This document shows positions 14,157-16,799 of a DNA stretch of 64,000 nucleotides, piece by piece. Location: assembly GCA_016186795.1 (NCBI GenBank), contig JACPKY010000001.1, positions 1,357 to 65,356 of the forward strand, given 5' to 3'. The stretch comes from Candidatus Gottesmanbacteria bacterium (lineage in GTDB: Bacteria > Patescibacteriota > Microgenomatia > 2-02-FULL-39-11). Both the position numbers and the translations under genes were made by a program. The stretch's first letter is position 1, and the number at the start of each line of letters is the position of its first letter. Under the pieces are notes generated by a model. The model had not been told where the DNA came from. It was given only the letters and a program-made list of their open reading frames with translations, and did no database searches.

Positions 14157-14322
14157 TGCCTGTTAGACGACTTGCCCTGAGCGAAGTCGAAGGGTTAACA
14201 ATCAAAAAGTGGTAGGAAGAAAGTTTGATGTTATTTTTACTAATAAAAATTAAAAAATAACAAAAATATAAAAAATAGAAAGGAGGTGATCCATCCCCAC
14301 CTTCCAGTAGGGATACCTTGTT

Positions 14323-15173
14323 CATGTTGTTCCCATTATTTCTAAGGGCATGGACTATATCTTCATCCCGATTGAATCGGGAGCCAACGTGTAGTCTCTA
14401 CGGGGTTAACAATGTAGAAGTAACGACTGAAATTTATACTTCATGCACGGTAAGATATGCGATCTCATAAGTAAGAAGAGTTTCTTTGCATTTGATTTTG
14501 AAAACCAGAGATAATTTCCTTTGCTATCATGATAAATTGTAGCTTTTAAGCCAAAATTTCTATCAAGACAGTCTTGAAGTATCTGATTTCCTGATAAACC
14601 AAATGCATATGTACTTATACGTAACCACTCTCCTTGTTTCGTTCCATTTCCATCATCCATAAACCAAACAGCCAAACTACGCGCTGATACAAGTAGCTTG
14701 TGTATATCAGATGGAATAATTTTTCTATTCCTGGTATAGAAAAGTCTTTTCCATTCGGATAATTCCGGATGATAAATCGTTCGAAGAATAATCGAATTGT
14801 TATACGGATCAAAAGTAGGACCTTTTAATGTCCATCTCTTCCAGAATCTGTAGTGCCAATCGACGTACTCCGAAAAAAGAACTGTGTGTCGAATCTTAAA
14901 TCTAGCTAACATTCCAGAACGTGATGATTCAATATGTCCATCACCAAGAAGAGTACCTATCAAAATTTCTTTCTGAATATTTGTAAGGTGTAGATTTGCT
15001 CGATACTCTTTAAGATATCTGGTGTTAGTAGCTCCGTGCGTCATTGCAACTTCCCTCGGTATTATCCTCTTAACTCAAGATAGCTTAATACTACTTCTTA
15101 AGTCAATTAGGACTTCACCGATATAGTTAGATTTTTCTAACCAATTACTTGGTTAGGTCGCTCTATCTCTAGG
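14323..15173 (-). mobile_element. Intervening sequence (probable group I intron) in 16S rRNA carrying a homing-endonuclease ORF
   Basis: It splits the conserved AAGUCGU|AACAAGGU segment. The 5' exon ends in U and the insertion ends in G, matching the group I rule. It carries the LAGLIDADG ORF on the same strand. Confidence 0.7.
14406..15044 (-). CDS. LAGLIDADG homing endonuclease (intron-encoded)
   Basis: Two LAGLIDADG-type motifs, LIGTLLGDGHIE and LAVWFMDDGNG, in a 212-aa protein lying wholly inside the 16S insertion. Confidence 0.8.
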   Translation of the reverse strand: MTHGATNTRYLKEYRANLHLTNIQKEILIGTLLGDGHIESSRSGMLARFKIRHTVLFSEYVDWHYRFWKRWTLKGPTFDPYNNSIILRTIYHPELSEWKRLFYTRNRKIIPSDIHKLLVSARSLAVWFMDDGNGTKQGEWLRISTYAFGLSGNQILQDCLDRNFGLKATIYHDSKGNYLWFSKSNAKKLFLLMRSHILPCMKYKFQSLLLHC

Positions 15174-16799
15174 ACGACTTAGTCCCCATCGCCAAGCTCG
15201 GCTTTATCCCGATAAATCGGGACATCGGCCGCCCTTGACTTTGTTGGCTTGACGGGCGGTGTGTGCAAGACCCGAGAACGTATTCACCGCGACCTGCTGA
15301 TTCGCGATTACTACCGATTCCTAGTTCATGCAGTCGAGTTGCAGACTGCAATCCCAACTGAGACGAAATTTCAGAGATTTGCTTGCTGTTGCCAGCTTGC
15401 ACCTCGCTGTTTTTCGCCATTGTAGGATGTGTGTTGCCCACGGCATAAGCGCCGTGCTGACTTGACGTCGTCCCCACCTTCCTCCCCGACAAATGTCGGA
15501 GCAGTCTCGTTTGAAATATATAACAAACGACGAGGGTTGCGCTCGTTACCCCACTTAAGGGAACACCTCACGGTACGAGCTGACGACAGCCATGCAGCAG
15601 CTTTCCTATCATCCTTGCGGATGATCCCGATTTTCATCGGGACTAAACGATAGGATGTCAAACCGTGGTGAGGTCTTTCGCTTCGTCTCGAATTAAACCA
15701 CATGCTCCACCGGTTGTGCGGGTCCCCGCCAATTCCTTTGAGTTTCAACCTTGCGGCCGTACTCCCCAGGCGGGGTGCTTAACGCGTTAGCTTACGTCAC
15801 CCATTCCGCTAAAAGCGCACATTATATATGTACGCGCTTGGCGGAACGGGTAACTAGCACCCATGCGTTTACGGCTAGGACTACGCAGGTCTCTAATCTG
15901 CTTCGCTCCCCTAGCTGTCATGCCTCAGCGTCAGAAGTTGGTTGGTTTCCTGCCTTCGCTCTTGGTGTTCCTTTCGATATCAACGCATTTCACTGCTACA
16001 CCGAAAGTTCCGGAAACCCCGCCAACCCTCTAGTCTACCCATCTCTCACCCATGATCCGGTTAAGCCGAACCATTTAAGGCAAGATGCGGTAAACCGCCT
16101 ACGCGATGCTTTACGCCCAATAAATTCGGATAACGCTTGCGCCCTACGTATTACCGCGACTGCTGGCACGTAGTTAGTAGGCGCTTATTCTCCAGACCTC
16201 GATGGTCTGGCAAAAGAGGTTTACATACCGAAATACTTCATCCCTCACGTGGCGTCGCGCGGTCAGGCTTTCGCCCATTGCCGACTATTCCTGGTTGCTG
16301 CCACCCGTAGGTGTATGGCCCGTATCTCAGTGCCATTGTGGCTGGTCGTGCTCTCACACCAGCTACCCGTCATCGCCTTGGTGGGCTTTTACCCAGCCAA
16401 CTAGCTGATAGGAGTAAGGCTCCTCTCGAAGCGGGCAGTGACGCCCTTTGCTCTTGCGAGAACATGCAGTATTACCCCGTCTTTCGACGAGCTATACTTC
16501 ACTTCGAGGTAGATTCCTTACTATTACTCACCCGTCTGCCGCTGACCCCTTGCGGGGCCCGCTCGACTTGCATGCCTAAGGCACGCCACCAGCGTTCATC
16601 CTGAGCCAGGATCAAACTCTCAATAAAATCCTACCACAACGTGCTATTCCTAATTGAGGGAAAAAAACCCGCCAACGTAGCGGGATGTTGCTCCTTATTA
16701 CAGTTGATCGTTGCCCTTATTCCTTCTTTTTGTCGTTCCCCTCTATTAAATGAATATCTTGTCTGACTATACTAAAATCCTCCTTGAGTGTCAAGGGTT

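Follow-up and report, generated by a model that had tools for sequence, protein, structure and literature searches.

In the 64,000-nucleotide (nt) stretch of Candidatus Gottesmanbacteria DNA analysed here (the window), the 16S ribosomal RNA (rRNA) gene is interrupted at position 1498 by an insert, which we regard, with a probability of about 0.9, as a group I intron carrying the gene of an I-SceI-type homing endonuclease. According to the Rfam scan and our reading of the minus strand, the rRNA gene, which is of the single-copy type, lies on this strand from 16627 to 14279. It is composed of the following parts (Escherichia coli numbering where indicated).

15174 to 16627, minus strand: 16S exon 1, equivalent to E. 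coli positions 1-1498; matches Rfam SSU_rRNA_bacteria with 1275.8 bits; its last base is E. coli U1498
15178 to 15174, minus strand: 5' strand of the intron helix P1, GUCGU, the last 5 nt of exon 1
14323 to 15173, minus strand: probable group I intron of 851 nt between U1498 and A1499 (from sequence, same-site homologs in 16 other loci, structure and covariation)
14279 to 14322, minus strand: 16S exon 2 of 44 nt, equivalent to E. coli positions 1499-1542 by alignment to E. coli and to intron-less 16S; comprises the end of helix 44 (h44), helix 45 (h45) and the anti-Shine-Dalgarno motif CCUCC

Exon 1 terminates with GGGGACUAAGUCGU at 15174, where the conserved AAGUCGU is cut off from AACAAGGU. 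Exon 2, which opens with AACAAGGUAUCCCUACUGGAAGGUGGGGAUGGAUCACCUCCUUU, extends from 14322 to about 14279, and the intervening 851 nt (15173-14323) do not belong to the rRNA. The junction allows no shift, as a U stands against a G on one side and a C against an A on the other, and its position is unambiguous. In a global alignment of the spliced gene with the annotated 16S gene of E. coli (L086, 1542 nt), the last base of exon 1 was partnered with U1498, so that by this alignment S1498 is the name of the intron in standard nomenclature. The corresponding alignment of the unspliced gene scattered the 851-nt gap under a low gap-extension penalty, and only the spliced alignment was used. The latter puts the insertion inside the h44 strand of the decoding centre and not at a helix tip. 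When the spliced 3' region was compared with E. coli genomes by blastn, the divergence of h44 ended the alignment at query position 174. Over its full 1498 nt, the spliced gene could be aligned, junction included, with metagenomic 16S genes that lack the intron, of which the best matches (L088, L125, L158, and L182) were 87–88% identical to it. Furthermore, the uninterrupted 25-mer GGGACTAAGTCGTAACAAGGTATCC is present in at least 120 metagenome contigs, which represent intron-less alleles in nature.

The first-pass annotation of this DNA, made from the letters alone, had split the 16S gene at 15174/14322 by 851 nt, and this was borne out to the base. It had named the small-subunit (SSU) alignment across the gap as the decisive check, and this alignment showed the spliced gene to be collinear with intron-less 16S, confirming the insert. 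Regarding the extent of the gene, the proposed 3' end at 14279 held, whereas the proposed 5' start at 16622 lies 5 nt inside the start of the Rfam model match at 16627. The accompanying warning that annotation pipelines would truncate or miss such a gene proved justified as well: the cmscan SSU match (15107-16627) looks complete and runs into the intron, forcing model positions ~1499-1533 onto it with almost no matches, and in the window scan this match did not find the true 44-nt 3' exon with its anti-Shine-Dalgarno motif. Standard rRNA callers thus mis-annotate the gene as a seemingly complete 16S that ends in the intron, with the true 3' exon left out.

To the minus-strand insert belongs a single long open reading frame (ORF).

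14406 to 15044, minus strand: ORF in the P6 loop of the intron, 212 amino acids, for a predicted homing endonuclease of the I-SceI type, LAGLIDADG_2 (ORF list, Pfam, AlphaFold, Foldseek)

Read from 15044 to 14406 on the rRNA strand (639 nt), this ORF is intact, and no other long ORF occurs in the insert. Its product matched the Pfam family LAGLIDADG_2 along the complete profile (positions 1-168 of 168; E = 9.8e-35; 120.4 bits against a cutoff of 25). The comparison with known enzymes that the first-pass annotation had proposed yielded full-length sequence matches to the solved structures of I-SceI and I-WcaI (6x1j), with E ~1e-12 and an identity of ~24%. The two LAGLIDADG motifs, LIGTLLGDG and LAVWFMDDG, align with those of I-SceI, and their residues D35, D130, and D131 are invariant in the 22 homologs aligned; the early description of a 212-residue, two-motif ORF inside the insert was thereby upheld by the ORF list, Pfam, and the motif alignment. 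The AlphaFold model (predicted local distance difference test score, pLDDT, 93.7; predicted template modelling score, pTM, 0.89) has I-SceI and I-WcaI as its top Foldseek matches (template modelling score, TM, 0.81–0.85 over 212 residues), and model and matches together show the pseudo-dimeric alpha-beta-beta-alpha-beta-beta-alpha fold of a monomer. Taking the Pfam result, the I-SceI/I-WcaI match, the two motifs, and the modelled fold together, the ORF product is predicted to be an enzyme of the I-SceI type, monomeric and with two motifs. NCBI lists the identical protein, annotated as hypothetical, from a contig of 193,780 bp in a metagenome-assembled genome (MAG) of Candidatus Gottesmanbacteria, which makes the host a member of the Candidate Phyla Radiation (CPR).

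Protein homologs with 40–67% identity all reside in 16S genes at the same junction (AAGTCGT / ... ATG / AACAAGGT, with slashes at the exon borders). Including the window copy, we collected 17 same-site introns, 16 from Microgenomates-type loci and one from a MAG binned as Anaerolineae; by record, the hosts comprise Levybacteria, Daviesbacteria, a Woesebacteria-named protein, and the one Anaerolineae-binned MAG. More distant relatives (<40% identity) were found in 23S genes, namely of Acidimicrobiaceae, Chloracidobacterium, and Acidobacteriota MAGs. Three such LAGLIDADG_2 relatives, with 32–39% identity, lie inside 23S genes of non-CPR MAGs (L021, L022, and L038), where the Rfam large-subunit (LSU) rRNA matches cover model positions 2049-2651 (L021, L038) and 1232-2925 (L022). 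This location echoes the home of I-SceI in an LSU rRNA intron.

The RNA structure was derived from an alignment of 17 mini-introns from which the ORF interiors had been removed (the window copy and 16 other loci). RNAalifold, which holds no knowledge of group I introns, returned P1, P2, P3, P4, P5, P6, P8, P9.0, and P9; P7 was added to this structure as a pseudoknot with P3. Standard pairs were formed by 95.8% of cells, compared to 33–43% when the 3' partners were slid by one to three columns. Compensatory changes were present in 32 of 65 pairs, and none of 500 shuffles reached the observed values. In the window copy, the elements are the following.

15157 to 15173, minus strand: P1 loop with a GAGA-capped hairpin (15173-15162), then the internal guide sequence GCGAC (15161-15157)
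15137 to 15156, minus strand: P2 hairpin CUAACCAA-GUAA-UUGGUUAG with a GNRA loop; compensatory changes in 6 of 8 pairs
15126 to 15130, minus strand: P3 5' strand CUAAC, pairing with GUUGG (14388-14384); 4 of 5 pairs covary, 100% of cells paired
15056 to 15121, minus strand: P4-P5 domain, with P4 UCGGUG (15121-15116)/UACCGA (15061-15056) and J4/5 GAA
15112 to 15109 and 15068 to 15065, minus strand: P5 UCCU/AGGA, with the P5a extension at 15106-15070
15042 to 15055, minus strand: P6 5' strand GGG (15055-15053) and P6a 5' strand CAAUG (15046-15042), which holds the ORF start codon
14402 to 14414, minus strand: P6a 3' strand CAUUG (14414-14410), within the last ORF codons, and P6 3' strand CCC (14404-14402)
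14384 to 14401, minus strand: R element GUAGAGACUACACG (J6/7 and P7 5' strand G(A)GACUA with an A bulge), followed by P3 3' strand GUUGG (14388-14384)
14366 to 14382, minus strand: P8 hairpin UCCCGAU-UCA-AUCGGGA; compensatory changes in 4 of 6 counted pairs
14352 to 14365, minus strand: S element UGAAGAUAUAGUCC (J8/7 and P7 3' strand UAGUCC), nearly invariant in the 17 homologs
14323 to 14351, minus strand: P9.0 AUG (14351-14349)/CAU (14326-14324), P9 CCCUUA-GAAA-UAAUGGG (14348-14332), and the terminal omega-G at 14323

At the 5' splice site, GCGAC (the guide sequence) pairs with the exon sequence GUCGU at five of five positions in all 17 introns, each time with the U1498·G wobble. P3 takes the forms CUAAC/GUUGG, UUGGC/GCCAA, CCGAC/GUCGG, and UCGGC/GCCGA. 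P4 (99% paired) and P5 (94% paired), as predicted by RNAalifold, both show compensatory changes; the 11-bp P5a was read by hand from the window sequence. The P6 pairing GGG/CCC is found in 17 of 17 introns (one with a G·U variant), and P6a covaries, for example as CUGCGA/UCGCAG in relatives. A conserved CCGAGGGAAG occupies the P4/P6 junction, 9 nt upstream of the AUG of the ORF, and the GAGGG within this region (15058-15054) could possibly double as a Shine-Dalgarno ribosome-binding site. In the catalytic core, GUAGAGAC is invariant in all 17 copies, the pairs of P7 are 100% paired and form a pseudoknot with P3, and P7 itself, G(A)GACUA/UAGUCC with a G-C pair next to the bulged nucleotide, does not vary in any of the 17. 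The S element, with the core AAGAUAUAGUCC, matches the consensus UgAAGAUAUAGUC of the Rfam model Intron_gpI. Towards the 3' end, pairing in the 3-bp P9.0 is complete (100%) and includes one compensatory change, from G-C to A-U; P9 covaries in three of five pairs and bears GNRA loops. The intron ends with ACAUG at 14323, and its terminal G, positioned by P9.0, is invariant in the 17 sequences. The U at the end of exon 1 and the G at the end of the insert, on which the first-pass annotation had based its group I assignment, are thus both present, and the assignment itself gained support from the comparative secondary structure with covariation and the conserved R and S core elements.

Several results weigh against a group I intron. 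In the window, Intron_gpI (RF00028) matched with 26.2 bits (E = 2.3e-4; 14332-14606) and 11.4 bits (15012-15121), below the gathering score of 50 that the database formally demands, and none of the S1498 homologs at the 16 other loci reached the Rfam gathering score for this model either. P1 and P7 are invariant across the 17 sequences and covariation is therefore neutral on both, so that their support comes from sequence conservation; this invariance is expected because P1 includes a universally conserved exon and P7 the catalytic site. Furthermore, the window copy has a weak P10 or none, and it lacks the P7.1/P7.1a present in 13 of the 17 introns. Regarding the low score, the 639-nt ORF inside P6 splits the Intron_gpI model and may be its cause; the strongest-aligned stretch of the sub-threshold match is the J8/7-P7 consensus UGAAGAUAUAGUC. 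The Rfam check suggested by the first-pass annotation accordingly gave a match, but, with no group I match in the window at the gathering threshold, it would have looked negative if taken alone. An 8-bp complementarity between J3/4 (CUAUAUC) and J8/7 (GAUAUAG) of the window copy was not conserved in the homologs and was set aside as chance.

Among the alternatives, the strongest is a group I ribozyme that no longer splices itself and needs the LAGLIDADG protein as a maturase, or a host factor, with DNA cleavage lost. The compact window copy without P7.1/P7.1a and with a weak P10 would suit such dependence, and the more distant structural relatives listed by Foldseek include the bI3 maturase and the bifunctional I-AniI. 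However, both LAGLIDADG motifs have kept their catalytic acidic residues, the closest structural relatives I-SceI and I-WcaI are active endonucleases, and the core helices are all intact. The patchy distribution, the host binned outside the CPR, and the many intron-less alleles fit ongoing homing, and we consider this alternative unlikely. Far less probable is an intervening sequence that is cut out by RNase III-type processing without ligation, so that the 16S rRNA would stay in pieces, with its last 44 nt at the 3' end as a separate molecule. Bacterial 23S genes are known to contain intervening sequences that fragment the rRNA, and the same has been suggested for some short CPR insertions (PMC11270868), but co-folding of the two ends of the insert (60 nt each) gave no long terminal stem, the insertion sits inside the decoding-centre strand of h44 instead of a helix tip, and the insert has a group I core that is complete, covaries, and includes U·G and omega-G. 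That a foreign intron was joined into the 16S gene of the MAG during assembly is a still slimmer prospect: rRNA regions are hard to assemble and bin in metagenomes, yet both exons and the intron share one contig with clean, in-register junctions, the identical ORF is recorded on the 193,780-bp contig, and homologous introns occupy exactly the same junction in independent assemblies from many samples. Finally, an intron of group II or of the archaeal bulge-helix-bulge type with a LAGLIDADG gene can practically be dismissed, despite the LAGLIDADG genes of archaeal rRNA bulge-helix-bulge introns and the D1-D4 matches with LAGLIDADG_1 ORFs upstream in the 16S of related loci (16IS9, PMC11270868), since junction co-folding returned intramolecular hairpins only, with no inter-junction helix or motif, no group II family matched in the window at the gathering threshold or in 14200-15300 at E <= 10, and the group I fold is supported instead.

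For the group I intron with its I-SceI-type endonuclease gene, we infer guanosine-dependent self-splicing, possibly assisted by protein, from established group I biology. The 16S gene would be transcribed with the intron in place, and the intron RNA would fold into the group I core, in which P1 presents U1498·G while the P4-P6 and P3-P7-P8 domains assemble around the guanosine-binding P7. An external guanosine would then attack the 5' splice site in the first of two transesterification steps, P9.0 would place the terminal G in P7, and U1498 would be religated to A1499. The ligated junction AAGUCGU-AACAAGG (GGGGACUAAGUCGU-AACAAGGUAUCCC) would restore the decoding-centre strand of h44, h45, and the anti-Shine-Dalgarno tail. 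Following established LAGLIDADG biology, the endonuclease would cut intron-less 16S genes at the universally conserved 1498/1499 sequence (predicted target GGGACTAAGTCGTAACAAGGTATCC), and the intron would be copied by double-strand-break repair and so spread by homing. The intron occupies the decoding centre, where it lies beside A1492/A1493 and falls exactly at U1498, so that this organism's ribosome would depend on accurate splicing.

Elements of this kind have been described before. Tsurumaki et al. (2024, J Bacteriol) surveyed 380 CPR 16S genes and found insertions in 48% of them, at ten recurrent sites (PMC11270868). Group I introns occur at 16IS4-7 and 16IS10, LAGLIDADG_2 and LAGLIDADG_3 proteins share 16IS5 and 16IS10, and LAGLIDADG_2 proteins are encoded at position 1498 of CPR 16S genes (PMC11270868), and the first-pass annotation was thus correct in mentioning earlier reports of such insertions from CPR lineages. 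The group I site 16IS10 is stated as not reported in other known bacteria, and I-ShaI, another LAGLIDADG enzyme of a CPR rRNA intron, cuts its own insertion site biochemically (PMC11270868). In general terms, CPR 16S insertions were first noted by Brown et al. 2015, as cited in PMC11270868. The window element shares with the 16IS10 class the host superphylum, the gene, position 1498, the ORF family (LAGLIDADG_2, ~210 amino acids), and a group-I-like RNA, and nothing essential sets it apart. Since 16IS10 with LAGLIDADG_2 at 1498 is already described in PMC11270868, the window element is, judged by its sequence, a member of this known class. The additions made here are modest, i.e., the covariation-supported structure, the placement of the ORF in P6, the compact form as opposed to forms with P7.1, and the two-motif nature of LAGLIDADG_2; PMC11270868 counts LAGLIDADG_2 as single-domain, whereas the window protein has two motifs and models as an I-SceI-like monomer. 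The intron is one more of the abundant CPR rRNA introns with a homing endonuclease gene and opens no new question, but its alignment and structure could seed a better covariance model for the ORF-containing S1498 introns that Rfam misses.

Outside the CPR, the 16S genes of Thiomargarita contain IA3, ID, and IC1 introns (Salman et al. 2012, as cited in PMC11270868 and PMC4853749). As far as these citing papers convey it, they are likewise self-splicing introns of group I within bacterial 16S and provide an experimental precedent for splicing, in a different host phylum. With I-SceI, which belongs to the omega intron of yeast mitochondrial LSU rRNA, and with I-WcaI, the window protein has in common the full-length similarity, the predicted fold, the two motifs with catalytic Asp, and the location inside a group I intron of an rRNA gene. 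In contrast, the identity is only ~24%, the host gene is a bacterial SSU instead of a mitochondrial LSU gene, and the target, here a predicted one, differs. Regarding intron architecture, the td intron of phage T4 belongs to subgroup IA and encodes the GIY-YIG endonuclease I-TevI from an ORF in the P6 loop, and this subgroup has as its hallmark additional stem-loops that lie between the 5' strand of P7 and the 3' strand of P3. As in td, the endonuclease ORF of the window intron is looped out of P6, and 13 of the 17 S1498 introns possess P7.1/P7.1a or P7.2. The window copy differs from td in lacking P7.1 and in encoding a LAGLIDADG instead of a GIY-YIG protein.

Comparison of the 17 introns revealed two forms. 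In 13 of them, an extra stem-loop, P7.1/P7.1a, stands between P7 and the P3 3' strand, with a further hairpin in two (L010, L011), and the ORF continues across P6, J6/7, and the 5' strand of P7, hence the shared C-terminal ...SPVET... peptides. The remaining four (the window copy, L001, L002, and L076) lack P7.1/P7.1a and constitute the compact form. Here, the ORF ends directly before the P6 3' strand in the window copy and L002, and four codons later, at the UAG of GUAGAGAC, in L001 and L076. The window copy might tentatively be assigned to a distinct compact S1498 lineage (without P7.1/P7.1a and with an ORF that ends at P6), which would be shared with L076 and imply transfer between CPR and non-CPR hosts. 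Moreover, P4/P6 contain the start codon and the putative ribosome-binding site, so that an RNA being translated into endonuclease could be unable to fold as a ribozyme, and vice versa; we rate this whole proposal as doubtful. The intron of L076 (DAOTYB010000094.1), the Anaerolineae-binned MAG, is a compact S1498 intron with an ORF of 33% identity, situated in a 16S-tRNA-tRNA-23S operon, and could reflect either cross-phylum transfer or mis-binning. Judged from the sequences, the distribution over several Microgenomates lineages and one genome binned outside the CPR, next to intron-less relatives at 87–88% 16S identity, fits a mobile element. In a Levybacteria MAG (L012), the start of the ORF (locus position ~2001) shows an apparent 2-nt insertion after codon 5, followed by an early stop, which points either to a decaying endonuclease gene or to a sequencing or assembly error.

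Several of the related 16S genes contain additional introns. A second intron matching Rfam group-II-D1D4-1 lies upstream of S1498 in L001 (1650-1743), L002 (319-399), L007 (1385-1463), L010 (474-551), L011 (1136-1225), L014 (398-476), L016 (1195-1277), and L017 (1152-1235), and encodes a LAGLIDADG_1 protein in L001 and L002. Its position corresponds to the group II/LAGLIDADG site at ~1400 (16IS9, PMC11270868), at which the 16S gene of the window has no insertion. Further group I introns above the Rfam gathering score were identified in L007 (405-597 and 1555-1784) and L014 (568-797); therefore, some Microgenomates 16S genes carry three or more introns.

Apart from gene calling, the intron also affects amplification. 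A polymerase chain reaction with a 1492R-type primer would span the interrupted site or fail on it, which contributes to the under-detection of CPR. The 515F primer site (16145-16165, minus strand) reads GTGCCAGCAGTCGCGGTAA in the Rfam alignment, with a T where most bacteria have a C (CAGCAGCCGCGG); this mismatch together with the intron at the 1492R site would hamper amplicon detection.

Regarding the surrounding locus, the Rfam scan revealed no 23S rRNA gene in the 64-kb window, and the 16S gene thus appears to be a stand-alone unit. Upstream of it lies a near-consensus sigma-70 promoter, TTGACA-17-TATAGT (16766-16794, minus strand), with 11 of 12 matches. A hairpin with a run of T residues (CCCGCTACGTTGGCGGG TTTTTTT; 16668-16684, minus strand) separates this promoter from the 16S 5' end; it resembles a terminator and could either terminate the upstream gene or act as a leader element. 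By eye, the leader sequence GTGGTAGGA (16629-16637, minus strand) before the 16S 5' end is complementary to TCCTACCAC (14209-14217, minus strand), ~60 nt past the 3' end, and the two may form a processing stem that brackets the whole intron-containing gene. About 130 nt downstream of the 16S 3' end, AAAAAATCCGTCCTTTTGAGGGCGGATTTTTTGT (~14117-14150, minus strand) resembles an intrinsic terminator, which the terminator scan did not list. On the minus strand, a 255-residue ORF (16800-17567) has an N-terminal signal-like segment and a C-terminal LPKTG with a hydrophobic tail; the Pfam match to Gram_pos_anchor is weak (E = 0.002, below the cutoff), and in this CPR genome the product may serve as a substrate for sortase. 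Immediately downstream of the 16S (13451-14111, minus strand), a small DUF5678-like ORF (weak match, E = 0.0011) is accompanied by an ORF of 149 amino acids. In the Woesebacteria-type loci L003-L005, a DUF5678 and aspartyl-protease-like gene pair (4723-5360) is located ~1.4 kb further downstream of the 16S gene, and three other small genes, one with a PIN domain, lie between the 16S gene and this pair. The presence of a DUF5678-like gene downstream of 16S in the window and in L003-L005 may represent conserved synteny.

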